DNA from: Nemertoderma westbladi
Lineage: Eukaryota; Animalia; Xenacoelomorpha
NCBI GenBank assembly: GCA_032718475.1
Contig: JAUCBJ010000560.1
Coordinates: 1 to 37,899, forward strand
Reading direction: 5' to 3'
Length of the DNA stretch: 37,899 nucleotides
In this document: positions 11,182 through 37,516 of the stretch, piece after piece
How the letters are laid out: every line of letters begins with the position of its first letter
Position numbering within the stretch: position 1 is the stretch's first letter
The notes under the pieces: model-generated
What the model was told of the DNA's origin: nothing
The model's input: only the letters and a program-made list of their open reading frames with translations
Databases searched by the model: none
Translations under genes and position numbers: made by a program

Positions 11182-11226
11182 AATAAAGGGGCCGAGCCCT
11201 ATCTCGGATGATGAAATGAAATGAAT
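11182..11226 (+). other. LINE 3' terminus: AATAAA, hairpin and simple-repeat tail
   Basis: AATAAA 11182-11187; CCGAG-CCCTAT-CTCGG 11192-11207; ATGATGAAATGAAATGAAT 11208-11226. Confidence 0.75.
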
Positions 11227-12220
11227 GCTGGATACTCTTGAAAACAGTGTCGCTACCATGACGACGGCTAACAGCTGATATTGCCACGTCGACGTTTCTT
11301 TGTTTCTTTGTTCTCTCGTTGTTCAGGTTGACCAATCAGAGCGTTTTTTGTCTCTGTGTTGGAGGTGTATACAGAACTCAGTAGTTCAGTGTTATGTTTT
11401 TTGCCTAGAGCCTAAGAACATCGGCCTTTGGCACCTCCGTATATCAGCGTTCTTTAGCTTTACATTAGTAGGCTTAATTATAGAACGTATATCTGTTATC
11501 AACCTATCTACTCCATACAATCTAACCAAACTAATTATATGCAATTCATATCTTACATTACTGCTTTTGCTGTTGGTTATTCGTTATATTTGTTGATGAA
11601 TTATTATATCGGAATACTGATCAATAGTCAGACACCCCACCTTCTTGATATACTAAAGGTTAGAGAGACCGGTTACAGATAAACGATTGCGACCTATGTT
11701 GAGTGGTTTGAAGTGAATCTAATGCTATTTCATATGCCCAACATAAATTGTCTGTTGCTCTCTTTATACGTGACTAAATTTAGTGAAGGTTGGCAGATTA
11801 GTGTGCAGTATTGTGCAGCATTGTGTATGATTGTAACTGATAACAAAGCATCTCCTAAAGAATGCGCCATATACGTTAATCTATAGCCTTTTCGTTGTGA
11901 CTAGTTTAAGTCATAACTCTGTTTACATATTTAGAGCGCCACGTCCTAAAGGAACTGTTAATATTTCCCGAAAGTGAATAATATTTGTCAGAGATTATAT
12001 ATTACGATCAGTCGAATAATACAGTAGGCTTACACCATCAATCATTAAGCTCCGAACTCAGTCTCCCGGGTATATCCAACGGGTGAATGATTGCGCATAG
12101 ACTGGCTTCGGCTAATGTAGTGTGTCAAATACTCGTCATAAAGCTAAAGAATATATATCATCTAAAAGACATTCTAATTTTGGCAGGTTAAACTGTCAAA
12201 GGTCTTCAAAAGCGCAAACA
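11227..12220 (+). repeat. 5' LTR, missing its first 185 bp
   Basis: Matches 30601-31592 with about 4 substitutions and 2 single-base indels seen by eye. Ends AAACA; CCAAT box near 11332. Confidence 0.95.
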
Positions 12221-12234
12221 ATAACAGATATACG
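12221..12234 (+). promoter_or_regulatory. Non-tRNA primer-binding site candidate (complementary to an LTR-internal 14-mer)
   Basis: ATAACAGATATACG is the exact reverse complement of CGTATATCTGTTAT at 11486-11499 (30858-30871 in the 3' LTR). No TGG directly follows the LTR. Confidence 0.7.
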
Positions 12235-12503
12235 CTTCTGGATTGCGGTGTAAGCAATCTAGTAGAAAGTACCGGTCGACCGGTAACCAGTAGGCCTGAC
12301 TGCCTGATCATCCGGACCGGTACCTACTTACGGTACAGGTACAGCAGTATTATTCGATTGTGGTATTGTATACCGGTAGGCTGTTTAAGAGATTAGGGAC
12401 TGTACACCCCTTGTTTCTTTTGGAGCTTACTTATTTCTGTCAGTTTTATTTATTTGTAGGCCAGTATTGAGCAGAAGGCGTGTAAGCCTGTGCAGATTGT
12501 ACG

Positions 12504-13075
12504 GATAATTTGTAGGCTTGACTGTTGGCTAACTGTTGATTAGGTTTGAACGGATTGCAGTGCATGTAGAGTGTATGTCCGATAAAGAACGGTTAGGAAG
12601 TAGGGGCAGCCATTGCTGTAAGGTAAACCCCCATCTAAAGAATAAGTCGTACTACTGGGTTAGAACGCATACTACTTAACCATTTCGGAGTCTGCATGTC
12701 CTGTGGTTTATTTAGGCTTGATAGTAGTTTGCCATCGTTTAGTCTGTACTTTGTTTGTGTAGTCTGTACGGGTAGCGTATAATTTATTTAGATAATTTGT
12801 AGGCTGGATAGTTGTCTGGCTGCTGTTGGGTTTGAGGAGATTTCGGTGTGTGTAAAGCATCTGTCCGATAAAGAACGGTTAGGAAGTAGGGGCAGCCATC
12901 GCTGTAAGGTAAACCCCCATCTAAAGAATAAGTCGTACTACTGGGTTAGAACGCATACTACTTAACCATTTCGGAGTCTACATATACCGTAGTTTGTTTA
13001 GGCTTGATAGTAGTCTGTCAGTGTTTGGTCTGCATTTTGTTTGAATGGTCTGTACGCGTAGCGTAATATTTATTA
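12504..13075 (+). repeat. ~287-bp tandem duplication in the BEL leader, each copy a long stem-loop
   Basis: GATAATTTGTAGGCT at 12504 and 12791. A ~118-nt core (12576-12693 vs 12862-12979) differs at one base; the arms are diverged but still pair. Confidence 0.9.
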
Positions 13076-14398
13076 TTCAGAGTTTATGCGATTATTCGCA
13101 ACATTCATTCCCCAAGTTTGTTCCTACAGTAATTGTGTTTGTTATACATACCGTTATAGTTAAACTAACCCCGGTACTATACGGGCTGCTTGGCGTAGGT
13201 AAAGACTGGTGATTTTGTGCACCGGTCACTCCAGCAGATGCCGTGGTTCTTTTAGCTGTTCAAGTATTTTTAACTACTAATTATTTGTTATACAAGTACT
13301 TGTACCTAATTTAGGGTTTAGTGTACAGTGCTTTCCGAAAGCAATTAGTGTGTAGGCAGTGTATTTGTGTTGTAAAGTGGTTGATAGGCACGTACGTTAG
13401 CTCTATTAACTTCTAGGTAGGGACACTCCGTGATACATAACGTAGTACCTATAGCGATACGGTTATAGGTCGTCAGGCGGTGGTATTTTCCTATCTGGAC
13501 AGCGCAGTATATTTACTACTACTTATTATTTTCAAATACCGTAGTAACCTGTCCGTTGTAATAACCAGATATTCTAACCCTTTGTTAGGCTGGTTAGTAG
13601 ACTTCTTGTAAAATTACCCTAAAAATTTGTATTTGTGTATTTGTAATTAAATTTTTGTGTTTACTTAGAGATTGTAATCTCAACCCGAATTGTACGTAAT
13701 TTGTAGTATTAAGTAACTTAGGTAAATTAGAATTATTTGTTTTAGTGTCCAACAAGTAGTACTCCACTGAGAGCGCACAGCTTCTGTGTAGTGACTCCCC
13801 CAGAAATAATAACATTTATTTCAAACATTGACAAAACCCATTTCAACGGGTATATATATATTATAAATCAACTCAAACGATTTATAAATAGTAGGCCTGC
13901 CATACAACAATTAGGTCTCAATATCAGTTGGACTGCTGCTTAAATAACGGTAATAAAGTAAGTTAAAGTAACCAAGTAACCCTTAAATTTCAGAAATTCA
14001 ATTATTTAAAATAATTGATATACCGGTATTTACAATAGGCTTATTATCTTTATTTTCATAAACTTAAGCTGAAATCATACCGGTATTCTGTAATTAATTT
14101 TAGTTAATAATTATACTTATATATACTATAAGTGTAAACTGCATACCGGTATCCACGATAGGCCTATTATATATTTATATATATTTGTGCTAAAATTATA
14201 TATACCGGTTCTGTGAAAAACCTAGTCTGTAATAATACTTATATATACCATAAGCATACCGGTATTCTAATATTATATATATCACGCTACACTGAGTAGC
14301 AGTATCGGTAATTAATTACTAGGCTAGCAGTTAATACTGAATTACTAGACTTACTTAAACTGTAATATAGCAGTAGGCATTCAACTGCGTAAACAAAC

Positions 14399-16031
14399 AT
14401 GTCTGATACTAAGCAGAACCTGTCAGACAGTTTATTAGATGTAACTATCTGCGACTCAGATAGAGGTGTAGAACCGTCTATTCCTAAGTTCAGTTCACCT
14501 CCCACTGTGAGGAAAGTCATCCCTCCAGTAGTAATAACAGAACCTAGGCTGGTCCAGCACCGTAGGTCTATCATAGGCACTCGAGCCCGGGTCAAGCGGG
14601 ACCAAGAAGCAGCGGAACAGCAACAACCCGTGAGCCAAGAACTTATTTCTCAGCGGCCCGACAGCTCCAGTAGTGAAGATACTGTAGAACTGACACCCGA
14701 GCGCGGAGCAAGGATGACGGATGCAGTTTATTCGGATCCCCTTCTCATCCTTCCTGCAGCCGTACTCACTAGGTTATTGATCGCGGTGGAAGAACACCAG
14801 ATCGATTGGGCGAGAAGTAAGCGCTCAACTAAAGATATTTATGCGGGATACACAAAGGAAGAACTGAAATCTATGGTCGAGTCGCAATGGAACTTCCCCG
14901 GACCCGGACTCCCGTTTGATTTATCAGAAGCTGCCTGGGAAGACATACACCGAATGGGAGTAGCCAAGGAAACCATCGATCCAGCTGTGTGGAAGAGGTC
15001 CGCAGCCGGATACGCACAGGGATTCTTCAGCTCTATGGAGCGAGTAGAAAAACAACTGTTACAACAACCTCAAGGACCTCAAGAGCAGGGACAACTGCTT
15101 TATCAAGTTAGAGAAAGAATTCTGCGAATCAGGCTAATATTATCAGCCTTTGAAGAGGCTTCTAAAAGAAGACAAGACACGTCGTTGCAAGTTGCCGTAA
15201 AGACTTGGTTTCAACGGGTGAGTCGCCAGGTTCAAGGAACAGCTCAGTGGAAAGCTCAGCTGGAGGAGCGCTCAACCCATGGAGAATCAACAGACGCTAC
15301 TTTTTCCCAAGTGGAAGGTGAAGCGACGGCAGAAAAACCGCAAAAGAGGGATGCCATTGACATCTATCTGTCAGACTATCAGCGTTTCGTAGGTGATGAA
15401 GAGTTGCGGAGAAGACTAGAGGGGCTTAGCCCTAATAGTGAAGGAGCCCAGCGTGTGTTGGACGCAATCGATGTGGATAGGTTAGCTGCGAACCAAGCTA
15501 AATTCAATGAAAGCATCCGCATCGCTAAGGTTCAAGAAGAACAAGTAAGGAAAAAACGTATAGAAGATAGAAAGAAAGCGGCAGAGGCAAAAGCGGCAGC
15601 TGCAGCAGTAGAAGCCGAAAGAAAGGCGGTAGAAGCCGAAAGAAAGGCGGCCGAAGCGGAAAGAAAGGTGGCAGCTGCAGCAGTAGAAGCCGAAAGAAAG
15701 GCGGCCGAAGCGGAAAGAAAAATAGCAGTGGCAGAAGCAGAACGAAAGGCATCTGAAGAGATAACCCAACTAGAGTTGGAAAATCTTCAAGAGAAACAAG
15801 ACAACTTTAATAAACAGTTAACAGCTAGTAATATGCAGATGATGAATCGATCTACTCCCAAAAGACAGGGTTATACATCATCTGAGGAAGGCGATACCAC
15901 CGACACTGAAGGCGGAGGAAATCGATCTCGCCTAAGCAGACGTAAAAGAACATCCCACCGTCAGAAATTGCCTGATTTGCCTCCAGCTGTTAGAAGGCAA
16001 CTAAATAACACCAACTTAGGTAGTACAGAAC
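14399..16031 (+). CDS. BEL gag, N-terminal part (interrupted by the P element)
   Basis: ORF from ATG 14399 with a charged helical AEAERKA repeat. Removing the P element and one TSD joins it in frame (GSTE-PTDQIITIERL) to 20700 onward. Confidence 0.85.
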
Positions 16032-16377
16032 CATGGCCTACTTTATAAGAGGCCATGACAACGCACGGGCAAATAGCTGACTTGGAGGCCACTTTGTTTA
16101 TGGGTGTAAGTCGGAATATATGGTAGATACAAACTTCTAACCTTTACCTACCCCCACTAAGTCGATGCTGAGGATCTCAAATATCATATTTAAAATTGTT
16201 TATCTCGAGACCCTGTTGCTATGGCAACATCTAACTTCTAAACGGCTGCAGATACAAACTTCTAACCTTTACCTACCCCCACTAAGTCGATGCTGAGGAT
16301 CTCAAATATCATATTTAAAATTGTTTATCTCGAGGCCCTGTTGCTATGGCAACATCTAATCAGTGGATACCGGTTGA
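16032..16377. repeat. Left TIR of the P element with an internal ~110-bp direct duplication
   Basis: Reverse complement of 20465-20691; block 16125-16234 is repeated at 16250-16359. Confidence 0.9.
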
Positions 16378-16473
16378 ACTTCCATTAAAAAAATGAAAAT
16401 AATACTTAAATCAAATATATAAGTTGCGTATAAGTTACAGTAAAAGTAAATCAAATAAGTAGAAAAATAAGAA

Positions 16474-19033
16474 CTATAGTGACAACTTTAGTTTCTTAGT
16501 AGAAGATTCCTTCGAAGACAATGGTGTAAGGAGTTTCGTTTGATTGTTTAAAAAAATATTAGTTAGCTTCATTAGACACACTTGTGGAATCTCACCATCA
16601 AAATATTGACTTGACACAAAGCTAAAGTAGCTGCAAAGACTTCTCCGGCAAACTGAAAGCACACTGATGTTAAGAAAAAAAATAAAACAAAAAAAGGTAA
16701 ACTGCACTAGTATATCTGATGGTGTAGTAAGGCGACCTCGGTCTAGCTCTTTCAAATAGGTGCTGTACTCTGTATAGACAACTGTAGAAGGGTCTATGTT
16801 AGTATTCTCCGGTAAAGATCGCTGAAGATAACCGGCAATAAAGTACAACGCTTGTTTAGTGTCAACATTTATCTCATCTTCACACATAGGTAGTGTCTCG
16901 ACGAGATCTACAATAAATTCAGTCAATGTGACATTACATTTAGAGCATTTATGTGAGTCGTAATCGCTCTGCGTTGTTGACTGCTCATGTCGGAGAAACT
17001 CGAAATTAATTGAGGCTAACAGTTTTGTTTTTTGTATTTGGTAATACTGAAGGGCTTGCACTGCTGCAATGAAGTATGTTCCTCCCGCTGACTGGCGAAT
17101 CCGACCGAAAGCTTTTTCCAGTGGATCAGTGGTAAAATTACCACACAAAACATAATCGAAATTGCGTTGAAGTAACGATTTCACCAAATCTACAAAACCA
17201 CGAAACGTATGAACAATGGCGCTAGCTGTATCTGTTGTAAATGTCTGATAGCGAGTTTTACCATTTACACACCTCATTTTCTCAACATTAGAAGCTATAT
17301 CGAGCAGTATATCCAACCGTTTATCACCAGGATCTGATATGGGACTCCGCCATTCATCATTTAAATGTATAGCCTCGTTCTTGGACTTCACATTTAATAT
17401 CTTGAATGCCTTCACAAAAACTTCTATGAAATCTGCCGTGTCTTTGTCAGTTTTGTTTGATTTCGTATGAGTACGTAAAGCTGTTACAGTTTCGTCACAA
17501 AATACTCGAAGCATTAAACAAACGTCTTGTCTCTCAATAGGTTTCGGGTATACAGCTTTGTGAATAAGTCGATGACCAATTTTAACAACATTGGACTTCT
17601 CAGACTCGTATAAACTTCTAATACTCGACCAATTGGCTATCTTGCCATCAAGGTTTATTGCCTGGTTCTTTTCAGTGATCCAATTATTGCGAATTGATTT
17701 CATCAAGTGAACAAAATCAAACAAAAGAAATGTTCCCTGAGTGGTTAACCAAGGCTTTCCTACCTCAGTTTCAAATAAAGCAAAAAAGCTTCGATTGACA
17801 GACAGATTGTCACCAAGAATTGCAATAACATTACCATTAGCTGATTGAATGTTTAGATAAACATCTGTTATAACATCATATAGAAAACTTGAATCTAAAT
17901 TTAACACTGGCATCATGTTGTTCAGAAATGTTGGACCACCATGAAGGCATTTTAACATAACACCCAAAATAGTTTTGGCCAAATAGTTGGGATTGTTTTC
18001 AGCTATTCCAAATATGTGACCACCTTGGTAGGCCAATGCCGCCTTTACGTAAATTTCATCAACCAAGAGCACACAGTTCCGTTGCATCACTGATAGGTTT
18101 TTAAAAACTGCGTGTAAAAAGTTATGATCATCTAATTTATTTGCAGTCGAAGTTAGTCGTTGCAATGTACGGATTGATGGAAGAGGATACTCATTTAAAA
18201 TCTTTAAATACAGTTGCATACAGTCGACTAGTTGCATAATATTCAAAAGCACGAACCAAAACATCGGCAGTCCATTTCTGACAACCAACACGAACAGGTT
18301 GAAGTGACTTAATATCCTGAAGTAAAATATCGAGTTTGGAAGGGGTTTCCGCATTTGAAAGAAAATTAACCACATTATCTAATATTGACCAGCGATCAAT
18401 CACTTTTATACGCATGGAGTTTATAACGCAAAAGGGAACCGATATTTTAGCACCATATCTGTAAGACTCAAAAGTTAGATTCTTAAAGATCTTAAGAACA
18501 AACTTCGGAATTCCTGAACCAAACACAAATTCAGCACTTTGAATTATCGTCACCGGAACAGAAGAACCTGAAGATACTATTGCAGTAGCGGTGTAAACAA
18601 TAACATTATCCTTGATAATTTTTTTATCTCTTATCGCACCAACAACGTCTTTGTATTCGAACAAATCTTGTGCATTAAACTCGCCGAGCTGATCAGGTTG
18701 TATTTGGCGTGTACCAAAAGAAATTTTAGATACATCGCGCAGTTTTGGCTGAGATATGGGACAGCAACTTGGAGAAATCTGAGGCCATATCGAGGGGGGT
18801 TCGACAGGAATTAATTTCTGTGAGCGAAAAGCCCTACGTTGGGAAAACCCCTCCGGCCAATGCAGTTCACACACAACTGTGTGCTTGGAGACAATTAAAT
18901 TTTGGCGAACTTTCAATAGAACGCTCATCCATTGAGAATGGTACGGCTCGTCACTAGGAACTCGATAAACGGTTACCGGTGATTCATTTGCATAGTTGGA
19001 GCGACAAAGTGGAACGCAGCACTTTCTAGGCAT
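16474..19033 (-). pseudogene. THAP-domain P-element (THAP9-like) transposase, one frameshift near 18200-18225
   Basis: THAP MPRKCCVPLC..VP..W..VVCELHW..P; LPSIRTLQR; catalytic LVDEIYVK, LGDNLSVN, FDFVHLMKSIRNN, TDPLEKAFGRIRQ. Split over ORFs 19042-18191 and 18375-16474. Confidence 0.92.
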
Positions 19034-19275
19034 CGCATGCAATGCAACTAGAAAACCGCATGTAAATACTGAATGCAGGTAAGTAAGGACTCCGAGGCGA
19101 TGATTACTGCTTCAACTGTTCAATCTGTCGGTCACGGTCAGATCTCAGACGGTAATTACCGAATTAATAGACCACATCAACTGTCAAACATAATAAAACG
19201 AGGTACCGGTATCACAAACAACAATAGGCCCTATGTATTAAGCAAGGAGTATTAAGCCATAAGTGGTCACGGACA

Positions 19276-20319
19276 CAGGGCTGGGAAAAACCATAGGTTT
19301 TTCAGAAAAATTTTTAGGTTTTAGGTTTTTGCAAGGTTTTTGTAGGTTTTTGGAAGGTTTTTGCAGGTTTTTGAAGGTTTTCGCTAGGTTTTTGTAGTAT
19401 TTCGCTAGTTTTTTGTAGTATTTCTGTATTTGTATATTGATTGATTAGATTGACCTGGCTGCCTGGTTGGTAAATGATTAGATAAATTATATGGGGCGAC
19501 ATTTGGTCAACTGGTCAAGATTATATTTTATAGATACACTATCAGACTATGATACAAAATTGTTTGAAAGAATGAGTCCATCAGGTTTCATTGTCATATT
19601 AGTTACATTTATATAAACCTGTACAAAGTCTGAAAGTAGGCTTACAGCAGTACAGACTACAGTCTTAAATTCAGACAGTAGGTGCAACTATTTATTACAC
19701 TATTAGTGTATTAGTTCAGTAGTCTATTAGTATCATTAGCATCATCAATCTGTCAATGCATGCAGAATGCAGGCACGCGATTCAGCGAATGCAGAATGCC
19801 ACCCCATCCCACAGTCCCATTATACTACTAACATAAAAGCATAAGGCAAACCATACTGCCATAACCCGATAACCACCTGACTGCCTCTGTGACCACCAGC
19901 TGACCAGAGCCAGAGCTGCAGAGACCACCCACTGACGCTGACCCAGCCACCTGCAGACCTGGCTGCCTGGACCACTGCTGCACCGTACGTGTACAGTTAT
20001 CAGCAGCAACGTAGGCTGTCAGGTAGTTGAGTTACCGGTCAGCCGGTACCGGACCATCTGACTGCTAACTTACATCAGCTAACTTGCATCAGTCAGCTTG
20101 TCAGAAGTGACAAGACAACTGGACTGGACTGGAACTCATCAGCTGACAATGCAAGTTGACTTGTTCAGTTGTTTTGAGTGTACAAATGAAATTAAAAGGC
20201 AAATTAAAGATGAAAAATCAAAAACCTAAAAACCTAGTTTTAGGCTTTTTTCAAATTTTAGGTTTTTGACAAAAACCTACAAAAACCTAGGTTTACAAAA
20301 ACCTACTTTGCCAGCCCTG
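19276..20319. mobile_element. Non-autonomous hAT element nested in the P element
   Basis: TIR CAGGGCTGG(G/C)AAA; 8-bp TSD CACGGACA at 19268-19275 and 20320-20327; clustered AAAACC(T) subterminal repeats; no transposase. Confidence 0.9.
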
Positions 20320-20464
20320 CACGGACACCGATAAAGGATAAGTACTATATGCTATACATTTGGAAGAAAACAGAATACAGAAGTACACATGAAGTAGGCC
20401 GCCCCACTAGAAACTAGGCATATACAGATATAGGCTACATGCTATACAGACAGACAAATACCGG

Positions 20465-20691
20465 TCAACCGGTATCCACTGATTAGGCCTAGATGTTGCC
20501 ATAGCAACAGGGTCTCGAGATAAACAATTTTAAATATGATATTTGAGATCCTCAGCATCGACTTAGTGGGGGTAGGTAAAGGTTAGAAGTTTGTATCTAC
20601 CATATATTCCGACTTACACCCATAAACAAAGTGGCCTCCAAGTCAGCTATTTGCCCGTGCGTTGTCATGGCCTCTTATAAAGTAGGCCATG
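20465..20691. repeat. Right TIR of the P element (~227 bp)
   Basis: Essentially perfect inverted copy of the left end. Confidence 0.9.
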
Positions 20692-20699
20692 TACAGAAC

Positions 20700-21772
20700 C
20701 CACAGACCAAATAATTACAATAGAGAGACTCCCTACTATAGTAGATGAGCCTGAAATAATTAGGCCTGTTCCCGAAGCCACCCTTTCGGTCGTAGAGACA
20801 CCTGTACTCCCTGAACCTACTTCTCAATTCCCTTTGCACAGCACTAAGCTACCTGTGCCCAGCAGAACAGTCCGTGAGACAGTTCATACCCTGGACTCCG
20901 AGCGAAATATTCATGATTTGTCGCCCGTTGTCCCTCGTCCGCCCGCTACAACGTTGGCGAATCCCGCTTCGGCGGTCGAATGGGTGGATGAGAGACGACG
21001 GGGGATGGATCTCCTGCTCGGACAGATGCAGGAGACTGTTCAACAATTCAAAGGCACAGTAAGGGAAAGTAGGCTAGAGTTGCAAGAAGTGCAGCAAAGT
21101 ATCGCGCTAGAACGCGATAAATTAGTAAATACACAAAGGGGTATACCACCACCCCCTGTAACCATGTGTCAACCTGTTAGGTCTGAAGTATCTCATGCGC
21201 AAGGTGTGGAGCCTACACGCATCTATACTGCTAGCGAAGTAGAAACTCCTATAGTGAACCCTATTAAGGGTAATTATAGACCTGTTGATAATGATATTCC
21301 CTATAGACCGGATCATAATCCGAGAAATTTATATACCGATAACTCGATATTAAATAACACGATGGCCCAAGAAAGTTTTACGCGTCAAATGGCTAGAACC
21401 GAAGCCCTGCAAGCAGTAAAGGTGGGAGAGATCGTCAAGTTCAATGGAGATGAGATGAAATGGTTACCTTTTAATGAATATTACAAAGATAACATACAGA
21501 ACTCTGTGCTATCTAATGGAGAGAAACTTAGATTCCTCATCGAGTGCTTGGAAGGATCTCCCAAGTTAATGGTGTTAAAGTTTATTGGACATCCAGACGG
21601 ATTAAGACAAGTTTGGGATACACTAAACATCAGGTATGGTAATAGGAATAACATAGCTGGGTATTTGTATGCAAAGTTGGTAGCGCCCCGAAAGTTTATT
21701 AGTAGCGGAATTATAGAGTTTTCCGATGAGATTCAGGAGATCTGTAGACAATTAGATTGGCTAGTCTCATGA
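20700..21772 (+). CDS. BEL gag, continuation (DUF1759-like capsid region)
   Basis: KFNGDEMKWLPF...LSNGEKLRFLIECLEG...WDTLNIRYG. Stops at TGA 21770, where the frame shifts +1. Confidence 0.85.
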
Positions 21773-21785
21773 GTATCAGAATGCT

Positions 21786-24700
21786 ATGGTTATTAGAGCA
21801 GTGGCTTCTACTTTACCGAAGGGTGGAGTAGGTACACGCTGGGATAAGAAAGTGTTATATATGATGGAACAACAACGACGAGACCCTACCATGGCTGATC
21901 TCATGTCATTCCTAGATGGAGAAGTGAAATTACAGCTCCTGAAACTGTCCAGAGAGAAGACACCGGAAAACAAGGTAAGTGAAAAACCCGTCTCTAGGAG
22001 AAAGGTAACACCAGTGTGTTATACAGATGATGGCGAAAGCCAGACTTCTCAAGGAGAAGATAGCGGGAAAGACACTGACCGCGCTTATTACGTAAATAAA
22101 ATGCCAAAAGATCAGGTAAGTAAATTCAAGTCTCGAACAAATGACAGGAGAGAACAGGTAAGAAAAACTCCTCCCACGTCTCCCAAGAGAATTCAGGTGA
22201 GAAAGCCAGAAGAAAAAGCAAGTGTACACAATGTGACTCAGAGTAAGGTGAGTAACATCAAACCGAAATGTGCGCTATGTGACGGGACCCATCGCTTAAA
22301 TATGTGTGATGAATTTCTAAAGAAATCATTAACTGAGAGACGTGAAGTCATGTGGGACAAGCGGTTGTGCTATAATTGCCTCAGACAAGGACACCAACGG
22401 CGAACCTGTTACTCTGACACAAGATGTGCCAAGTGCGGTGCGAAACATCATATCTTGTTGCACACTGAATTCGAGCGAAATAGTCCGAGTCAGGTAAGTG
22501 ATTCCGAATTACATGTCCAATTCAGTGATGTGAACGACACTGATCAATCTGAGATGGAAGGATTCTATACGGACGAGTTCTCCGACGAAAACGAATCCTG
22601 TTACATGATAAATACCACAGTGTATCGAGCACTCATTTATGAAAAGGATACATCAGACATTGACCTTGCTTTAACTACTTCTGATCGACAACCATCTTGG
22701 AAAGCGCCAACTTCCAATGTAGGGATTAGAGAATTTCCTGTGGTACAGGTAAGGGTCCACGGACCAAACAGGAGTTATGTAGTGAACGCCCTCCTTGACT
22801 CCGGTAGTACAGGAACATTCATCGACAAAGAGCTAGCCGAAGACATATTCGCTGGACAACCCAAGTTCCGAACTAAGCTAAACATGTCAGGAATTATGCA
22901 AGTTTGGAAATCCACAGTAACCGCGGATTATTATGTAGGTGCGTTGTCCACCCCCCAGGACGAACTAGGAGAACATAGCATAAGGTCAGTGAAAATGGTG
23001 GCTATAAAGAACTTCGCTACTACTCAAGCAGACCTTTATAATTGGGACGAGGATGAGAGCATCCAACATCTTAAGATACCTCGATTCCAGACAGATTATC
23101 CTGGAGTGCAAATACTCATCGGTCAAAATGCGCATGAAGCGCTCGAGACATTAGAGAAACGACCTGCTCAACCGCAACCTCTACAAGTTTATGCGGGAAG
23201 AACTAGAGTAGGTTGGTACTTTACTGGCCCTTCCCGTAGAACTCTAATGGAAAGATTACCGAAAGACCAAGTATATCAAGCACGAGAATGGGAAGTTGAG
23301 AACAGTGAGTTCGACGATCCAACTGAGGGAACTCCATACTCCTCAGACAACGACGATATACATCAACTTTTTGATGAGGAGAATGCCATCGATCTCCTTA
23401 AGGAAAGCGAGACTTGGCAAAATCAAGTGAACTTATGTCAACTCCTTCACCCATCTGAGCGAGACGACTATAACGACGAGCTTAATGACGTCATTGAACG
23501 TTATAATGCCAAGACTCGGGATGAACATGCCGTGAGATTCTTTACTCAAGAGGTCGTAGAGCCCAACTCCTACGATAAGGCCCTATCGGTGGAGGAAGAA
23601 AGAGCCAAGCAGATCCAAGCGACAACTACTCGTTTTCTTAAAGATCAAGGAAGGTATGAGATCGGACTTCCTTTCCGAAAGCGAGAACCAAAGTTTATTA
23701 ACAACAGACCTTTGGCGGAGAAAAGAATTGCTCAACTACATCGACGCCTTACGGCAAATTCTTCAGCTAAAGAAATGTATAAAACACAGTTGAAGAAGTT
23801 TATTAGCAAAGGATATGCGGAGCTAGTACCGGAAGAAACACCCATAACTGAGAGAACGTATTATTTAACTCACCATTACGTTCCCAAACCCGGTAAACCC
23901 CATGAAGTACGAGTGGTGTTTGATGGTTCCGCCCTTTATATGGGCCAATCTCTTAATTCTGAATTGTTACCCGGACCCAACTTACTCCAATCCTTGTTGG
24001 GAATACTACTGCGATTAAGACAATACTCCATTGCTTTCGCCTCAGATATAGAAGGCATGTTCTTACAAGTCAAAGCGCTGGATAGGGATCGAGATAGCCT
24101 ACGATTTTTGTGGTGGCCTGAAGGAGACCTCAACCAGAAACCGGTGGAATACTGGATGACCATCCAGGCTTTTGGGATAATCTCGAGCCCTTCAAACGCC
24201 TGTTCCGTGGTGCGCACTACTGCGGATGACAACCGAGACGCCTTCTCTAAAGAAGTGATCGACAATATCAAACGAGACATCTACATGGATGATAATCTGA
24301 AGTCCCTTCCATCAGTCGAAGAAGCCATTGATGTCGCTAAAGGAACGGTAGAGTGCTTAAGAAGAGGTGGATTTCGATTAACTAAATTCACCAGCAACTC
24401 CCGTGAGTTTCTGGAGTCGATCCCGGTAGAAGATCGAGGAACAAAAGACCTAGATCTTATAAAGGATGATCTCCCAGAAACTAAGACCCTTGGTTTGAAA
24501 TGGGACACAGAAAGAGATGTCCTGTTTTTCCAACTAAAACAGCGAGATAATCCAGTTCGGACTAAACGGATATGTTTAAGTATCCTGAGTACTTATTTCT
24601 ATCCATTGGGATTTATTAGCCCAGTTATATTGATTGCTCGGAGTTTAGTACAACAAATGTGGCTTGAAAACCACTCATGGGACGATCCACTTAAGGGAGA

Positions 24701-27167
24701 ATTATTGAAGAAGTGGATGAAATGGGAAGATTCTCTACCAGCCATCGAAAACTTCATAATTTCCCGTTCATATTTTGGTCATGTTCTCCCTACGTATTCA
24801 TATCAACTCCATGTGTTTGGAGACGCCAGCGATATGGGAATTGGTATAGTAGCCTACCTAAGGGTGGAAACTCCGGACGGAATCAAAGTCGCCTTGGTTA
24901 CCTCTAAGGCATTAATAAACAACAAGTTGAAAGTTCCTCGAGCGGAGTTAAAAGCGGCTCTATACGCTACAGCCATCGGCCGGAATGTAACAGAACAGAT
25001 CGACTATCCTCTGGAAAAAACTGTCTATTGGACCGACGCTTTACTCGTGTTGGAGTACATAACCAATGAAGTCTGTCAGTTCAGCGTCTTCGTTACCAAC
25101 AGAGTAGCTATTATACTCAGTCGCACGACGATGGATCAATGGAGACATTGCCCCGGAACGATTAATCCAGCGGACATCGCTTCCCGGGGAGCAACCCCAC
25201 AAGAACTGGTAGATACTCCAGACTGGTTAGGTGGACCCGACTTCCTCTACAAAGAAGAAGAAGAATGGCCTCCTCATCTTACTACAGCAGAAATTCGACA
25301 GGCCAAGGGAGCGGAGAAAGTCAAACCTAAAACTCAGGCGAGTAAATCGAAGTTATTCAAACCCACAGTAGATCTGTCTGTACTACATACTTCCGGAGAC
25401 GAAGCTTTGGATCAGAAACCCACAGCCACAAATAAACTCGTTGTAGAAATCCGTGATAAGGATTGGAAATCTGGTATACCTGACATCTCGCAAGGACTCT
25501 CACCTCTTCTGCAGAGAGCGATACATCACTACAGTTCTTGGAATCGGCTTTGTAAGGCCATTACATATTTAAAGAGATGTTTTCACCATCACTACTCTCG
25601 GATGAAAACAAAGGGTGATACCGCTCCAATCACCTCAGTGCAGGTCCATGTTATTAAAGACCTCCCGAAATATAAGGTACCCGACAAGTTTCTGAAGGAG
25701 AAGATCAGTTATCAGGAGCATGAAGAAACCAACAAACAGATGCTGAGACTCTTACAATGCTATGAAGATTCCGATAAGTATTTCCTGTTGTTGAGAAATC
25801 CACAGATGCGCTTAAGGGATCGTTTCTCTAGCACAATGATAGATGGGTTGATACGTGTTGGAGGAAGGTTAACGAATGCACCATTATCCTTTGATACTAA
25901 GTTCCGCATACTCATTAGAAATCTTGAAATACAAGTCAAGATGATTGTAGATGTTCACAGCAAACTTTATCATGCTGGTAGAGAACGAGTTCTTAGCGAA
26001 ATTCGAACTCGCTATTATTTTTATAAACCCCGTAGAGCTCTGAACCAAGTTCTTAGGAACTGTATACCCTGTAGGAAAGCATTCAGTAGGCCTTTAACAC
26101 AGAGAGAGGCAGAATTACCTAGGGAACGAGTAAGCTTTTATGAACCACCCTTTACTAATACCGGTGTGGATTTATTTGGCCCTATTGAAGTATATCGTGC
26201 TAGGACTATAGTCAAGAGATGGTGTGTAATCTTTGTTTGTATGACTTGTAGAGCCATCCATCTCGATATGGTGAACGATTTATCTACCAACAGCTTTCTA
26301 TTAAGCTTACGACGACAGATCGCTCGCTTTGGCACTAGTAACACGATGAGATCTGATAAGGGAACAAACTTCATTGGTGCCAATAATGAAATCAAAGCTT
26401 ACGTCAAAGATTGGAACCAAAGACAGGTAGACGACCAACTACGAGTAACAGCTTCTAGTTGGACCTTTAACGCCGCCGACGCCCCTTGGTGGGGAGGAAG
26501 TTGGGAGAGATTAATAAGAAGCGTGAAGACAGCATTTCATTTTATAGTGCCTTGCCGCGCTTATCTCACCGACGAACTTTTGCGGACGTTAATGGAAGAA
26601 ATCGCCGCCTATCTCAACGAGAGACCGCTTATGCCAGTCTCATCGAGTCCCGATTCCCTGGAAGCGCTAACACCCGCGCACTTCCTACTGAAGAAACCTG
26701 TAGCGATGCTCCCACAATCGGAAATAACAGACGGAGACGAATACTGCCGACAAACTTGGCAACTCATGCAGTTGTTATCCCGTCGCTTCACTGACCATTT
26801 CGAAAAACATTATCTGCCCACGCTACAACTTCGAACTAAGTGGTTTGCGCAGCAAGAAAACGTCAGCGCTGGAGACATGGTGCTTATTGTGGATGTGGAT
26901 CTTCCACGTAAGCGGTGGCAGACAGGTCGTATCATCGAGACACACCTCTCGGATGACGGTTTGGTGCGATCGGTAGAACTCGTCGTCATGCGACGTAACT
27001 TCAAGAAACTGGGAATTGTCTTCGAGACGCAGCAGCTCAATCGCCCGGTGGGACGTTTATGTTTACTGGAAAGAGACAGAGAACTCTCCGGAAACTATGG
27101 GAGACAAGATACTCTTCCCACGACCACCTCCCTAATCCAACAAACATCTAGGGACTCCACAACTTAA
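21786..27167 (+). CDS. BEL/Pao gag C-terminus + pol (protease, RT, RNase H, integrase)
   Basis: Zn knuckles CALCDGTHRLNMC, CYNCLRQGHQRRTC, CAKCGAKHHILLH. PR ALLDSGS. RT RVVFDGS, DIEGMFLQV, YMDD. RH FGDAS, PRAEL, WTD, NPAD. IN H..H..C..C, GVDLFGP, SDKGTNF, WERL. Confidence 0.96.
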   Translation: MVIRAVASTLPKGGVGTRWDKKVLYMMEQQRRDPTMADLMSFLDGEVKLQLLKLSREKTPENKVSEKPVSRRKVTPVCYTDDGESQTSQGEDSGKDTDRAYYVNKMPKDQVSKFKSRTNDRREQVRKTPPTSPKRIQVRKPEEKASVHNVTQSKVSNIKPKCALCDGTHRLNMCDEFLKKSLTERREVMWDKRLCYNCLRQGHQRRTCYSDTRCAKCGAKHHILLHTEFERNSPSQVSDSELHVQFSDVNDTDQSEMEGFYTDEFSDENESCYMINTTVYRALIYEKDTSDIDLALTTSDRQPSWKAPTSNVGIREFPVVQVRVHGPNRSYVVNALLDSGSTGTFIDKELAEDIFAGQPKFRTKLNMSGIMQVWKSTVTADYYVGALSTPQDELGEHSIRSVKMVAIKNFATTQADLYNWDEDESIQHLKIPRFQTDYPGVQILIGQNAHEALETLEKRPAQPQPLQVYAGRTRVGWYFTGPSRRTLMERLPKDQVYQAREWEVENSEFDDPTEGTPYSSDNDDIHQLFDEENAIDLLKESETWQNQVNLCQLLHPSERDDYNDELNDVIERYNAKTRDEHAVRFFTQEVVEPNSYDKALSVEEERAKQIQATTTRFLKDQGRYEIGLPFRKREPKFINNRPLAEKRIAQLHRRLTANSSAKEMYKTQLKKFISKGYAELVPEETPITERTYYLTHHYVPKPGKPHEVRVVFDGSALYMGQSLNSELLPGPNLLQSLLGILLRLRQYSIAFASDIEGMFLQVKALDRDRDSLRFLWWPEGDLNQKPVEYWMTIQAFGIISSPSNACSVVRTTADDNRDAFSKEVIDNIKRDIYMDDNLKSLPSVEEAIDVAKGTVECLRRGGFRLTKFTSNSREFLESIPVEDRGTKDLDLIKDDLPETKTLGLKWDTERDVLFFQLKQRDNPVRTKRICLSILSTYFYPLGFISPVILIARSLVQQMWLENHSWDDPLKGELLKKWMKWEDSLPAIENFIISRSYFGHVLPTYSYQLHVFGDASDMGIGIVAYLRVETPDGIKVALVTSKALINNKLKVPRAELKAALYATAIGRNVTEQIDYPLEKTVYWTDALLVLEYITNEVCQFSVFVTNRVAIILSRTTMDQWRHCPGTINPADIASRGATPQELVDTPDWLGGPDFLYKEEEEWPPHLTTAEIRQAKGAEKVKPKTQASKSKLFKPTVDLSVLHTSGDEALDQKPTATNKLVVEIRDKDWKSGIPDISQGLSPLLQRAIHHYSSWNRLCKAITYLKRCFHHHYSRMKTKGDTAPITSVQVHVIKDLPKYKVPDKFLKEKISYQEHEETNKQMLRLLQCYEDSDKYFLLLRNPQMRLRDRFSSTMIDGLIRVGGRLTNAPLSFDTKFRILIRNLEIQVKMIVDVHSKLYHAGRERVLSEIRTRYYFYKPRRALNQVLRNCIPCRKAFSRPLTQREAELPRERVSFYEPPFTNTGVDLFGPIEVYRARTIVKRWCVIFVCMTCRAIHLDMVNDLSTNSFLLSLRRQIARFGTSNTMRSDKGTNFIGANNEIKAYVKDWNQRQVDDQLRVTASSWTFNAADAPWWGGSWERLIRSVKTAFHFIVPCRAYLTDELLRTLMEEIAAYLNERPLMPVSSSPDSLEALTPAHFLLKKPVAMLPQSEITDGDEYCRQTWQLMQLLSRRFTDHFEKHYLPTLQLRTKWFAQQENVSAGDMVLIVDVDLPRKRWQTGRIIETHLSDDGLVRSVELVVMRRNFKKLGIVFETQQLNRPVGRLCLLERDRELSGNYGRQDTLPTTTSLIQQTSRDSTT

Positions 27168-27690
27168 CAACGGCTGGAGTGGGTGTGTGACCATATCACT
27201 TTATATTTGTATTTGTTTTATTTTATATTTATGTATATATTATTATGTAATTTTATTTTAATCGTTTTATTTAATTTTATTTAGTAGTATGGTATTTTAG
27301 AGATTATTTAGTAGATTAGTGCAATATATATTCGCGTTTATTATTTAATTACGTATATTATATATTTAGTGCGACGGCGAGAAATAATTATTTTTCTCTT
27401 TCCTTACTGTCCGTATTATATTATAAATACGTGACTACAGTAAGATGAAATATCCGTACTTTAAAGTACAATAAAGCCACTACTATATTTAAGTATTATT
27501 GGTAGGCAGAGTATTAGGAATGCAAAGTTCAGATCCTCGTGTCTCGGCTAAACCAAGCTCTGGGTAGACCTTGGAAACGACTTGCCTCTTCACACTGACA
27601 TTGCTTCGTGCGATATTGCTCTCATACCGTATATTAAATAATACATATAGTAGCGTGATGTCCCTTTAACAGTAGCGTATAACGCAAAAT

Positions 27691-28020
27691 AAATCTGTTA
27701 AACCCTTTGACCATCTGTAATTCTAGTCGATTAAGATATCGCGGCACCCACCGATATACTTGAAAGACAAATTTCTAGAATCAATGGTTAACGTCCCCAG
27801 ACAAGTTCTGGAATAAACTGGTGCCCATCCTAAATATTAATTATTAATATTTACAAAAATCTGTCAAATATCAGATCCTTTAAAATTCTAGTCGATTAAG
27901 ATATCGTAGCACTTACCGATACTCTTAAAAGGACAAAATTCCTAGAATCAAGGATCCCAGTCCCCAGACACGTTCTGGAATAAAATTGTGTCTATTTAAC
28001 ATTAAATAATAAAATTTACG
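27691..28020 (+). repeat. ~166-bp diverged tandem duplication with a conserved fold, 3' of pol
   Basis: AAATCTGT at 27691 and 27857; shared ATTCTAGTCGATTAAGATATCG and GTCCCCAGACA.GTTCTGGAATAAA. Confidence 0.85.
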
Positions 28021-28816
28021 GGAATAAATTTAAATTCAGATATTTCAATGAATTTAATAAATTGTCATTTTGTACAATTTATAACATTCCCCAAATTCCA
28101 TTAATTAATAGATCATGGGAGCGGAGATTCATTCTATTAAGTGTATTTGTGTGCGAGAATCTCCAATGCATAGTCAATAGCCGATAAAATTCATAGAATC
28201 ATGTATAAAGGGGATATTGACCATTAAAGAATTACTATTAAATAGCATCCCAGATCTGTATGCATGAGAATTACCCTAATTCTACCGCTAGCTTTCCATA
28301 ATGTCACCATGGCAACAACCACGCTAGAATTAGAAGTGAGTTAAAAGAACAATAGAAAGCATGCGTATTGAATAGCATACGGAATAAATAGCACACCGCT
28401 AGTATCCAAGAATACATAATAACAACGTGACATTCTGGAAGGCACTTGACTAACGGACAAATGACCCGAATGTGTGATAGAATGTGTACCATTTGTGACT
28501 GTTACGTGGAATTTGTGCGTTTGTAGGTGAATGTTACTACTAAGGTGTGTTTACAGTAGCGAGTCGCAATTGTGAAAGTAACCCTAACTCTCCAGTAAGA
28601 ACCTGAAGTATATCTAAGCCTTTGGGACGGACGGTGGAGTGGCTCGTGCTGGTTGTTGTAGTCGTTGTGCAGCTACGACGTTGGCGATAGGCACATCGGC
28701 GAAAGTACACCAGCGCTGAGGATCTCGCACTGTCCGGGGGCAGAGAGGGGTAGGCAGCGACGCCCGCTCGCCTAAATATAAACTCATTATAATATGGATA
28801 AACTTATATAGCAGAT

Positions 28817-30389
28817 ATGATTGAGTTGATAGAATATGATCTTGGTATCAGGGAGCGATATACTCTACCTTTACAAGCGTTTGTTGATAGCTTGATACGC
28901 GGCGACGCTGGTCCAACTACTACGGAGGACGATGGTCGTTATATCTAACCGCCAATGTCCCGGGAGCAACTTGCGCGTGGGTTGGACTGTAGAAAATTCA
29001 CCGCTCGCTATACGCATCGTAATGGTATGTATATGGACTTCTTAACTACTGGTCATCCTATCGACCTACACGATACGAACGATATAGACACCAAAGGGAA
29101 ATGGTTTATTTAAATATCATACCCAGCGGAAGCGGAACGATAAACTGAGACTCGAACACGAAAATTCTATTCGAAACCGACTCGAAAGTGCAGATGTCGA
29201 AGAGCCGGATAAACGCAGCGACTTCACCAAATACCTGGAATTCTTGAGAGAAACCTATCTCGATATTACCAGTCAACAGAATCTAGAAACTCGATATCCT
29301 CAAGGTATACATCATGACCGCATGGTAGAACTCAAACGGCTCTATTCCACTATGATGTATCTTACCGCCGATCGATCGCTACCTGTTGTACCGGATAGCT
29401 TCGAACGGATGGAGGAATATTGTAAGCTGGAGAAAGATCACTCGCATTTCCCCTACAAGACGTGCGTTTTTGGTATTATTGCGATGAATGCCCAAGACCC
29501 AACCAACAAACGGAAAGACATAAACATCCGCGGAGACGTTGCTTTAAACACGGTTTTACTCGCTATACTTACGGGAGTTTCGAGCGAAACTTGTTCAATG
29601 TATCACCTACGCTCGTTCGACTCAGACGATCCTTAAATAAACCAATGATCAGAGTTTCGGAATACTCGATCAGAGCTCCTCATTCCCTAGTGAGACATCA
29701 GACTCTTGATCCTATTAGTATGACGGATCCTCCCGAGCTGTACTCACTTCTCAAAGATCTAGTGTTACCTGAACAATTAGTCGGTGGCACCCCAGTTGTG
29801 GGCTTCCTAGATATTAGCCCATTCTACCTAGCCGGATTGGGACGCGGACATTTAATATCGCCGTTTAACCCTTACCATCGTCCCGGCTTAACACGATATA
29901 ACCTGTCAACAAAGTGGCGGAGAACGTTGTACCAAACGAGTAAAACGCTATTCTCCAAAGATCAGAAAGGAAACCTGCGTTTGTTCAGATAAACGTAAGT
30001 TGTAACAGCAAGTCCAAGCGATAAACGAATTGTCTTTATCTCAGTTCGATTGTGAAATCCAGAATCTCTAAGAAGATATCGAACTTAGACAACCCCATTC
30101 TCTGCGAGAGTTTTTGGATGAACGTATCCAGCTACGAGCGGAGGAAAATCAGCTCGAGGAGAAGCATATCGAAACGGCGGATACCCCGACCATAATCCTA
30201 CACCTTCTGATGCAATCATATTGCACCCTTCACCCAGGATTTATAGCCCTCCTAGTAAAGTGGCTCGCCCCAAAGAGAAAAGGACTCTTACTAGCCTCAA
30301 AAAACTGCGTAAACGCTGTCTGCGTAAGAAAGACTAACTGTTTAGAGTATCTTTATATTTTAGAAACTGTGATTTGTTATATTCTATAG
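28817..30389 (+). pseudogene. Decayed accessory ORF of unknown function between pol and the 3' LTR
   Basis: Successive protein-like sense frames (ATG 28817 MIELIEYDLG.., ~29115-29636, ~29630-29992, 30114-30389) separated by stops and frameshifts; TATAAA near 28776. Confidence 0.45.
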
Positions 30390-30406: not shown

Positions 30407-30415
30407 TGGGAGCGG
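30407..30415 (+). promoter_or_regulatory. Polypurine tract (short)
   Basis: TGGGAGCGG immediately before the LTR-start TGT. Confidence 0.65.
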
Positions 30416-31592
30416 TGTAAAAGCTTTTGCGTCATTAACCGGTTATTTTCCCTTAAAGTACTCTGTAGTTGGTTTGCCAGGCATAAAAAGGCCGTGTCCT
30501 TGCTGTACTGGTGTTTTAGAGGACATAAAAGTCATTTCTTCTGTATTTGTACTGTATTTGTACTTTAGAGGACATAATCCGCAATCTCGTGACGCGATAA
30601 GCTGGATACTCTTGAAAACAGTGTCGCTACCATGACGACGGCTAACAGCTGATATTGCCACGTCGACGTTTCTTTGTTTCTTTGTTCTCTCGTTGTTCGG
30701 TTGACCAATCAGAGCGTTTTTTGTCTCTGTGTTGGAGGTGTATACAGAACTCAGTAGTTCAGTGTTATGTTTTTGCCCAGAGCCTAAGAACATCGGCCTT
30801 TGGCACCTCCGTATATCAGCGTTCTTTAGCTTTACATTAGTAGGCTTAATTATAGAACGTATATCTGTTATCAACCTATTTACTCCATACAATCTAACCA
30901 AACTAATTATATGCAATTCATATCTTACATTACTGCTTTTGCTGTTGGTTATTCGTTATATTTGTTGATGAATTATTATATCGGAATACTGATCAATAGT
31001 CAGACACCCCACCTTCTTGATATACTAAAGGTTAGAGAGACCGGTTACAGATAAACGATTGCGACCTATGTTGAGTGGTTTGAAGTGAATCTAATGCTAT
31101 TTCATATGCCCAACATAAATTGTCTGTTGCTCTCTTTATACGTGACTAAATTTAGTGAAGGTCGGCAGATTAGTGTGCAGTATTGTGCAGCATTGTGTAT
31201 GATTGTAACTGATAACAAAGCATCTCCTAAAGAATGCGCCATATACGTTAATCTATAGCCTTTTCGTTGTGACTAGTTTAAGTCATAACTCTGTTTACAT
31301 ATTTAGAGCGCCACGTCCTAAAGGAACTGTTAATATTTCCCGAAAGTGAATAATATTTGTCAGAGATTATATATTACGATCAGTCGAATAATACAGTAGG
31401 CTTACACCATCAATCATTAAGCTCCGAACTCAGTCTCCCGGGTATATCCAACGGGTGAATGATTGCGCATAGACTGGCTTCGGCTAATGTAGTGTATCAA
31501 ATACTCGTCATAAAGCTAAAGAATATATATCATCTAAAAGACATTCTAATTTTGGCAGGTTAAACTGTCAAAGGTCTTCAAAAGCGCAAACA
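30416..31592 (+). repeat. 3' LTR, 1177 bp
   Basis: TGTAAAAGCTTTTG...CAAAAGCGCAAACA imperfect terminal inverted repeat; identity with the 5' LTR ends at 31592. Confidence 0.92.

Positions 31593-31630: not shown

Positions 31631-31661
<31 letters not shown>
31631..31661 (+). repeat. Poly-G tract (31 nt)
   Basis: Directly visible. Confidence 0.9.
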
Positions 31662-35057: not shown

Positions 35058-35304
35058 CTGTACATACGCCCCTGGCTCGGCTGAACTCAATAGGTAAACC
35101 GAACTACTGTAGATCTTGAATTATTGATTGAATTTATGGGAGGGATATATCGTAAAATTTATACCAAGTACAGTCCCAATCCCAATAAACATTAACTTGG
35201 TCGTTTTGGCGGCCAAAATCACCAAAAAAAATGTAGTGTATTCCTATGGGCTACTTGGTCGTTTTGGCGAAGCGATTTAACTCGAATCAGCTCAATCCAG
35301 ACAG

Positions 35305-36554
35305 GGTAAACGGACAGGTTGTATCCAGACAAGTTGTATCCAATTTCCTATTCTTAGCTTACAAAAGGACATTTTGTATCCCGATTTTCGGACATGTTGT
35401 ATCCAACTTATTTACGTTGTAAATTAACTGTAATTCTATCCTATTGAATAATATAATTAACTAGGCGATCCATAATCATAATACTGTACATTATACGATT
35501 AATTAGCATTGTGTAATGGAGGTCAAACAAATGACACTGCATCATGAATATGTAGAGGAGGTCAAACAAATGACACTGCATCATGAATATCAACTGTAAA
35601 TCCATGTAGTAACAGTTTAATATTTTAGCGATCTCGATTGTATGTTCAATTTGTAAATTACATTTTAATTAATTAATTTTTAGTTATTGTACCAATACAT
35701 TCTTCCTTGTATCAAAAAAACTCCATGGCCGTGTATCAAAAAACTATACACGATAATTCTAAACTTTGCCATGATGGCAAAATGTATTCCAAACGGAAAA
35801 CCAACAAGGATGGGTCTGAAATGTGGGTTTGTTCCAAACGACCCCACTGTATTGGTTCCGTAAAGACATTGACTCCACACTCAACCGAAGTCATTACTAG
35901 TAATCCCCATAACTGTATCGATTCTCCGATTGTGGAATTGTCAGCATTCCGACAGAGAATAGCGGACCAGGCCTCATCATCCCATACCAAACCCACCCAA
36001 ATCTATTGTTCCTCACTTCGGGATCTTGATTCAAAGTTGCACACCAGTTTGCCGCAACGTTCATCACTGCTGCGGCAGATACGTCGTGTAAGATCACGCC
36101 ACCTTCCCCCGGATCCGAAATCACTAAAGGAACTCTCATTCCATGGTGACTCCATCATAGATTTTATAACTTCAGATAATGGAGGAAAGTTCCTCCAATA
36201 TGACAATGGTGTCAATGCTGATGAGAGAATTGTATGAAATGGACAAGGACTTCAAATAACTCCGTGTAACATTTTGGCTAATAACTTTGTGTAACGTTTT
36301 AGTTTAGTTTTAGTAACAATGTTATCATGTATTATTATGTGTATTGTATATTATGTTTATTAACTACAGTATTAATGCAAATTATAAGAATAGTTTATAA
36401 TTCAACTGTGAAATTATTTAGCAATTTTTTTATGCCGGGATACAACTTGTCCTTTTTTTTGGAAGACAAGTTGTATCCAGTAAAATTGGATACAAGATGT
36501 CTGGATACAACTTGTCTGGATACAACTTGTCTGGAGACAACTTGTCCTGTAACC
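35305..36554 (+). mobile_element. Internally deleted Mutator-like element (MULE)
   Basis: Ends GGTAAACGGACA / TGTCCTGTAACC; 8-bp TSD CCAGACAG at 35297-35304 and 36555-36562; inverted arrays of GACAAGTTGTATCC. Confidence 0.85.
35707..36237 (+). pseudogene. FLYWCH zinc finger and N-terminal part of a MULE transposase, truncated before the DDE core
   Basis: LCHDGKMY...WVCSKRPHC...HNC, then RQIRRVR..PPDPKSL..GGKFLQYDNG..RIV-stop. Confidence 0.8.
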
Positions 36555-36764
36555 CCAGACAGTCTGTCTCCTTGGCCATCCATTTGGTGGATCTGACTAA
36601 ATGTCGGCTCGCTTTCATTTTTATTATTGATAGATTGTTAACTTACCCGGCGCTAAGCCTTGCAGTACTGGAGTTCGCCCACTGAGGCATTGATAGAGTA
36701 CACAGTCTTATAAAATGAGTTGAATGGGGCTTCGTTAAAGGAGGAGTATGTATAATAATCTGAA

Positions 36765-36868
36765 CGTCCCGAAATTAACTTATGGACGTCCCGAAATTAA
36801 CTTATGGACGTCCCGAAATTAACTTATGGACGTCCCGAAATTAATTTATGGACGTCCCGAAATTAATC
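36765..36868. repeat. 22-bp minisatellite, 5 copies, with inverted degenerate copies near 36915-36955
   Basis: Unit CGTCCCGAAATTAACTTATGGA. Confidence 0.9.
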
Positions 36869-37015
36869 TATCAACCAATCAGATTCGTAATGAAATAACT
36901 AATTAATGGACGCCCATAAATTAATTCCGGGATGTTAATTTCGGAAATTAATTTCAATAATATTTTTTTTTAATAATAATTTTTTTAAATATTTTTTTAC
37001 AATATAATTCGCGGT

Positions 37016-37516
37016 CACTGCGGGGTGACTACAAAACAAAGACTCAATTATAAAGACCTGCATAATCTTGTTACATGTGTTAACTTTCGTTAATTGTTTT
37101 GAATCCCCCGTCACGCCTCTGTAACTTGCTCCTTTACTAATCTGCTCCTTTAAATAGCAATGGTACATAACGCTCATTGTGACCTGTACAAAACAAAGAG
37201 GTAAAGTCGCGTTACGTCCCAAAGAGCGTTAGGTTCCAAAGAGCTTTAGGTCCCATTGCCAGAGAGCGTGAGGTCACATTGCCATGTAAAGGAGCAGGTT
37301 AGTAAAGAAGCAGGTTACAGAGGCGTGTTGGGGAACCAAAACAATAAACAATTATACAATACAATTATATTATCATTATTATAATCATTATAATTAATTA
37401 TTATTATTATATCAATTATACAATTATACAATAAACAGTTAACACATGTGTTTCGTATTTGTACAGGTCTTTATTATTTGGGTCGTTGGTGTTTCTTTTG
37501 TAGTCACCCGACACTG
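37016..37516. mobile_element. Foldback/palindromic MITE-like element
   Basis: GGGTGACTACAAAA/TTTTGTAGTCACCC, TAAAGACCTG/CAGGTCTTTA, ACGCCTCTGTAAC/GTTACAGAGGCGT, CTGCTCCTTTA/TAAAGGAGCAG. AT-rich insert in the right arm; no clear TSD. Confidence 0.65.

Follow-up and report, generated by a model that had tools for sequence, protein, structure and literature searches.

The window (the whole 37,899-nt stretch of DNA analysed) carries a 15.4-kb element that is, judged by its sequence, a BEL/Pao LTR retrotransposon, with Pao peptidase A17, DUF1759, DUF5641 and paired LTRs as hallmarks (Table 1). Relatives of its pol share at most 42% identity among the matches listed. That the family is large and varied is indicated by thousands of short contigs of one organism (A) that match the region; contigs of two further organisms (B and C) cover parts of it. 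The window consists of eukaryotic repeats, and the kinds of element in it point to an animal host. The 5' LTR remnant lacks its first part, and its truncated end adjoins the tail of a LINE (1952-11226), the first ORF of which (1960 aa) contains tandem repeats as well as a protease domain of Ulp1 type (E 7e-6). The leader (12221-14398) is unusually long (2.2 kb) and contains a 285-nt direct repeat (12504-13074, 86% identical). The probable gag region is split by a THAP/P-like DNA transposon (16032-20691) with 202-nt inverted ends, an 8-nt target duplication and, inside it, a duplicated end segment (16125-16359). Directly past the 3' LTR is a run of about 30 G (31632-31661), possibly an assembly artefact; farther downstream, 35296-37516 holds an ORF with a FLYWCH domain between inverted repeats and, at 37016-37516, a second inverted-repeat pair, and these are probably small DNA transposons.

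Table 1 Features of the retrotransposon and of the two RNA units in its 3' region, with positions in the window.
Feature	Position	Strand	Details
5' LTR remnant	11227-12220	+	99.4% identity to 30601-31592
Primer-site position	12221-12234	+	No TGG; 14-nt complement to LTR 11486-11499 (30858-30871)
Probable gag region	14399-21772	+	DUF1759 in 3' piece; split by THAP/P-like DNA transposon
BEL/Pao pol frame	21765-27167	+	Pao peptidase A17, integrase zinc finger, DUF5641
5' flank AATCTGT(T/C)AAA, conserved	27692-27702; unit B 27858-27868	+	
Unit A	27707-27827	+	Basal stem 27707-27714/27784-27791; stem 27720-27725/27776-27781
Unit A, possible GTC/GAC	27726-27728/27766-27768	+	
Unit A, upper parts		+	Upper stem 27731-27741/27752-27763; hairpin 27797-27811; pseudoknot tail 27820-27827
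Unit A, apical loop	27742-27751	+	First 6-7 nt predicted to pair with 27820-27827; duplex -12.1 kcal/mol
AAGACA	27764-27769	+	3' strand of unit A internal loop
AATAAA linker	27812-27817; unit B 27979-27984	+	From small hairpin to pseudoknot tail
Unit B	27874-27994	+	Same architecture as A; basal stem 27874-27880/27950-27956; hairpin 27964-27978; pseudoknot tail 27988-27994
Unit B, apical loop	27907-27916	+	First 6 nt predicted to pair with 27988-27994, one bulged base; duplex -4.5 kcal/mol
Acceptor-like AG and short ORFs, frames changing	28813-30389	+	28817-28948, 28956-29114, 29088-29636, 29645-29992, 30072-30389
3' LTR (TG...CA)	30416-31592	+	Purine tract 30407-30415 just before

Behind the pol stop, 1.65 kb of AT-rich noncoding DNA (27168-28816) leads to a run of short ORFs, with an acceptor-like AG (28813-28814) 2 nt ahead of the first ATG. 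The run (28817-30389) is probably a single broken extra gene. Homologues of its pieces were looked for and none was found, and a Pfam search gave nothing under E 0.1; weak and disagreeing Atlas leads pointed to tyrosine-recombinase-related families for 29088-29633 and to PP2C for another piece. A purine tract and then TG (27173-27187) stand straight behind the pol stop and resemble the true tract at the 3' LTR. We infer that a 3.2-kb block, comprising the extra gene and the RNA units described below, may have been added behind an older purine tract; the pattern count made for this was loose and had no control. Hairpins between pol and the first unit (27330-27489) also folded better than shuffled sequences (z -2.3 and -3.7).

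The noncoding region contains two tandem copies of a 120-nt unit, A and B. Unit A starts 540 nt past the pol stop, both lie 2.4 kb from the 3' LTR, and they are about 80% identical over 138 nt (E 1e-25) at a spacing of 165-167 nt. A duplicated motif downstream of pol had been claimed here in the original prediction, and it is borne out: every helix named there is present in the sequence. Each unit begins with a long interrupted hairpin, capped by an apical loop of 10 nt. A short linker joins it to a 5-bp hairpin, which an A-rich linker separates from a tail complementary to the apical loop. The conserved flank occurs twice in the element, once ahead of each unit. AATAAA is found eight times in the AT-rich noncoding region, and AAGACA only once there, yet 16 times in the element as a whole. 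The unit B counterpart of AAGACA (27930-27935) is AGGACA; family copies with 27931 G>A read AAGACA, and they make up roughly one third of the depth that the family has over unit B.

Changes between the units keep the predicted pairs. A model of 33 pairs leaves 65 of 66 cells paired across the two sequences. Three double changes occur, of which two are in the basal stem and one is in the pseudoknot, and two single changes also preserve pairing; slid controls reached 29-46% paired. Shuffling of partners gave values as high in 62 of 500 trials and is not significant, a test that cannot reach significance because the alignment has only two rows. Under random placement, at most one broken pair arose in about 1 in 1000 trials, a null biased towards the model because the model was drawn on the same two sequences. 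The basal stem had been described as swapped in sequence and kept in pairing; pairing is indeed kept, and the swap is not wholesale, since in register the units share six pairs and differ by two double changes (C-G/U-A and A-U/C-G) and one G-U/G-C change. Likewise, the helices ATTCTAG/CTAGAAT and GTC/GAC are both in the sequence and share one G, so that just one of them can use it at a time. GTC/GAC is invariant, and covariation therefore gives no proof of it; a family change, 27942 C>A, is compatible with its register.

Folding is biased to the plus strand, on which both units were more stable than shuffled sequences (z -2.5 for A and -2.7 for B, with 3 and 1 of 200 shuffles as good), compared with weaker values on the minus strand (z -0.45 and -1.6); the G-U pairs of the model form on the plus strand only. 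When the 3' noncoding region was scanned in 41 segments, z fell below -2 in seven, four of which overlap the units, two lie at 27330-27489 and one at 28010-28129. Each unit probably contains a pseudoknot, predicted in one bulged register for both (27742-27747 with 27821-27827; 27907-27912 with 27988-27994). The loop and tail change together, as had been claimed, by a G-C/A-U double change between the units, and T at 27742, common in the family, makes the first pseudoknot pair of unit A complete. By its calculated energy (-4.5 kcal/mol), the predicted pseudoknot of unit B is weak.

Other copies of the family vary mostly where the model leaves bases unpaired. For unit B, 15 of 19 listed changes fall at unpaired sites and 4 at paired sites, with 72 of 121 positions paired (p 2.7e-4), a value that rests largely on one divergent contig, as the family changes come from 40 of 106 rows and are weighted to those in set X5. 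One X5 contig carries a C-G to U-A replacement in the unit B pseudoknot, its two changes being linked by a shared depth value. Among the changes listed, those of the X5 contig at 27977 and 27993 would each disrupt a pair if the partner base stayed the same, and its 27982 A>C alters the AATAAA of unit B. Unit A has eight listed changes, two of which (27749 and 27762) may stem from B-type contigs placed on A; three are at paired sites, where each either preserves a pair or completes one. One entire unit is missing from three contigs, so that such copies, active or not, can do without the second unit.

Searches for relatives identified the motif in its own family only. An Rfam search returned chance-level matches (3 and 4) and nothing at gathering score. 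The original prediction had called for a covariance model; the two-sequence model that we built (R2) recovers units A and B alone in the window and hits none of the 81 distant BEL/Pao loci searched, which are 34-41% identical, a weak negative because the model comprises two sequences and just 28 of the 81 loci extend at least 1000 nt past the integrase match. Exact motif patterns found nothing in viral contigs, metagenome contigs or prokaryote genomes, and a loose gapped pattern gave 44 viral stretches, none of which fits the model. The motif is thus absent outside its family in these searches, all of them weak negatives. Searches of the open literature, a coverage with most subscription journals outside it, showed no structured 3' RNA element for BEL/Pao. 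Resemblances to H/ACA snoRNA, SECIS and coremin were dropped (wrong box spacing, absent UGA/GA core and no exact word, respectively). Complements of the motif to the leader, gag-pol and 3' region were 9-11 nt long and are read as chance, with no control. Together with the paired cells and the pair-keeping family changes, the Rfam result supports an undescribed structured RNA, as first suggested: duplicated, covarying and probably pseudoknotted. It would be of the retroelement cis-acting type. With natural compensatory changes in a compact fold repeated twice, it is small enough for probing, crystallography and reporter tests.

In LTR retroelements, structured RNA located here is best known for exporting or packaging unspliced RNA, a role that was not among the functions initially considered. 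We tentatively propose, by analogy with the MusD MTE and retroviral CTEs, that the units work as a cis-acting handle for export, perhaps packaging, of the unspliced genomic RNA. The hairpin would bend at its asymmetric internal loop and bring the tail to the apical loop, with the A-rich linker running beside the helix. NXF1, the export receptor of the host, or a factor like it would be recruited by the internal loop, which is rich in purines and contains AAGACA, and two units together would raise avidity. If, as we infer, transcripts are spliced to 28813, the mRNA of the extra gene would lose the units, which lie upstream of this acceptor-like site, and genome-length or gag-pol RNA alone would keep them. 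In CTEs, the word that NXF1 binds is AAGACA placed in an internal loop (PMC4330393, PMC4174252), and its position makes the AAGACA of unit A a candidate for such a word. Against this, the word is 6 nt long, was noticed after the fact and is frequent in the element, and its GAC may be paired. Repetition is usual in such elements: RSV direct repeats, two-fold CTE loops and tandem gamma-CTE copies (PMC12789967, PMC4174252, PMC7551171, PMC4330393). A pair of loops in two-fold symmetry, which the MPMV CTE has, is missing within a unit; each unit has one such loop and the units are tandem, and for this reason we say that they would work like a CTE, not that they are one.

Export, selection and priming of genomic RNA have so far been poorly described in BEL/Pao elements, and priming suggests an alternative role. 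No tRNA-type primer site (no TGG) follows the 5' LTR. Instead, the 14 nt after it are perfectly complementary to a segment of the LTR, a length reached by 1 of 2000 shuffles, and four more pairs form past one bulge (12221-12239 with 11482-11499, or 30854-30871). A complement of this kind is what PMC6317226 uses to recognize self-priming, and on sequence grounds this is a Tf1-like self-priming signature, contiguous and without a splice, in a BEL/Pao element. The units could aid reverse transcription or dimerisation, an unlikely reading, if the flank paired with the primer site and the folded units presented or released it, either linking the 3' region with the 5' leader or providing a second primer, encoded by the element. 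Eight nucleotides of the unit A flank (27693-27700) are complementary to primer-site bases 12222-12229, the 11-nt flank word, found solely ahead of the units, contains the last 8 bases of the putative primer, and B-type copies have T at the 27865 position, matching unit A. The duplex of 27672-27703 with the primer site (-14.9 kcal/mol) was reached by 1 of 60 shuffles. Against this, 94 of 2000 shuffled versions of the region contain an 8-nt complement, a marginal chance level; the better, 14-nt complement is already in the LTR and ends exactly at the LTR border; the unit A flank can be sequestered in a local hairpin with 27665-27672; and 27865 C>A is also seen in the family.

A rather unlikely explanation, one that the original prediction had included, is that the units are exoribonuclease-resistant RNAs in tandem, at which Xrn1 would stall and a subgenomic RNA with its start near 27707 or 27874 would be left. 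The tandem layout past a stop codon and the predicted apical loop-to-3' tail pseudoknot do agree with it, as viral xrRNAs (Flaviviridae; Tombusviridae/Luteoviridae) have this outline downstream of the coding region. The size fits less well: in PMC8374639, xrRNA rings are pseudoknot-dependent and measure 15-16 nt, whereas more than 70 nt separate loop and tail in the much larger units, in which such a ring is not evident at the level of secondary structure. In addition, no xrRNA family of Rfam scores, the protected RNA would hold 14 AUGs ahead of the next ORF, and our literature search found no xrRNA in a retrotransposon by title or abstract start.

Distinctly unlikely, too, is a switch of 3'-end formation or RNA stability after the pol stop, in which the pseudoknot would mask or expose the AAUAAA of each unit or, in an alternative form, the apical loops would pair immediately past the stop codon, with 27179-27186. 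Both units have retained AATAAA, and downstream of it come CA and a U-rich sequence; the 3' LTR is without AATAAA; and across the element no site pairs better with the two loops jointly than 27175-27187. The hexamer is nevertheless common in this AT-rich region and altered by the 27982 change of the X5 contig, the long-range loop score was matched by 4 of 60 shuffles, and that pairing shows no double change.

That the units are processing RNAs of a new class, which cleave themselves or block nucleases in connection with tRNA-free priming, is quite improbable. In this reading, each unit would make or expose an RNA end at the 8-base primer copy and so yield an element-encoded primer or a defined subgenomic RNA. 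If the units did cleave or block nucleases, they would be a new RNA class.

Self-cleavage by an undescribed class of ribozyme, one of the functions first suggested, we regard as very improbable. In size, and in having invariant bases in the internal loop and the linker, the units resemble HDV-like ribozymes, a kind known from retrotransposons. In these ribozymes, a pseudoknot strand inside the first stem is followed by a hairpin, a linker and the closing strand, an order of helices (P1, P2, P4) resembling that of the units. The units differ in having no P3 or P1.1, the 10-nt loop being too small for the HDV P3 hairpin, and no conserved linker C, the unit B linker in the window being without C. 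The earlier failure to match hammerhead, HDV, twister or pistol is confirmed and extended, as a search of Rfam to E 10 yielded no ribozyme family (the covariance models covered hammerhead, HDV-like, twister, twister-sister, pistol, hatchet and hairpin). Core words of hammerhead, twister and hairpin loop-B are absent from the units, and the patterns for pistol and HDV are too loose to decide. Cleavage between pol and the purine tract would, moreover, sever the genomic RNA that is the template of reverse transcription. Least credible is an IRES for the downstream ORF, the remaining function suggested at the outset: the units share an outline with domain 3 of the dicistrovirus IGR IRES (a long hairpin whose loop pairs with a tail past an A-rich linker) and a 64-codon open frame starts inside the unit B tail, but family indels at 27994, 28038 and 28067 break this frame, the other five of six frames tested, including those right after full pseudoknot tails, run for 1-6 codons, and 820 nt with 14 AUGs separate unit B from ORF 28817, which has its own acceptor-like AG.

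The export handle that we tentatively favour has its nearest counterparts in other retroelement RNAs. The units share with the MPMV/SRV CTE, the gamma-CTE and the RSV direct repeats a long stem-loop with internal loops, AAGACA in a predicted loop of unit A, and repetition; they differ from the CTE in a very asymmetric loop, the added hairpin and predicted pseudoknot, AGGACA in the window's unit B and the absence of two-fold loop symmetry. The MTE of MusD, a mouse LTR retrotransposon, is likewise a noncoding, structured RNA that lies behind the coding region and ahead of the 3' LTR, and its function needs long-range tertiary pairing (a kissing loop plus a pseudoknot). Both traits recur here, in the position of the units and in a predicted tertiary pairing (the pseudoknot, with two double changes), and the likeness is one of position and predicted pairing, not of sequence comparison. 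The MTE is a single element of about 400 nt that adjoins the LTR of a retrovirus-like host, whereas the units are two of 120 nt, 2.4 kb from the LTR of a BEL/Pao element. If they do serve export, CTE/MTE-type elements would extend to an invertebrate retrotransposon lineage.
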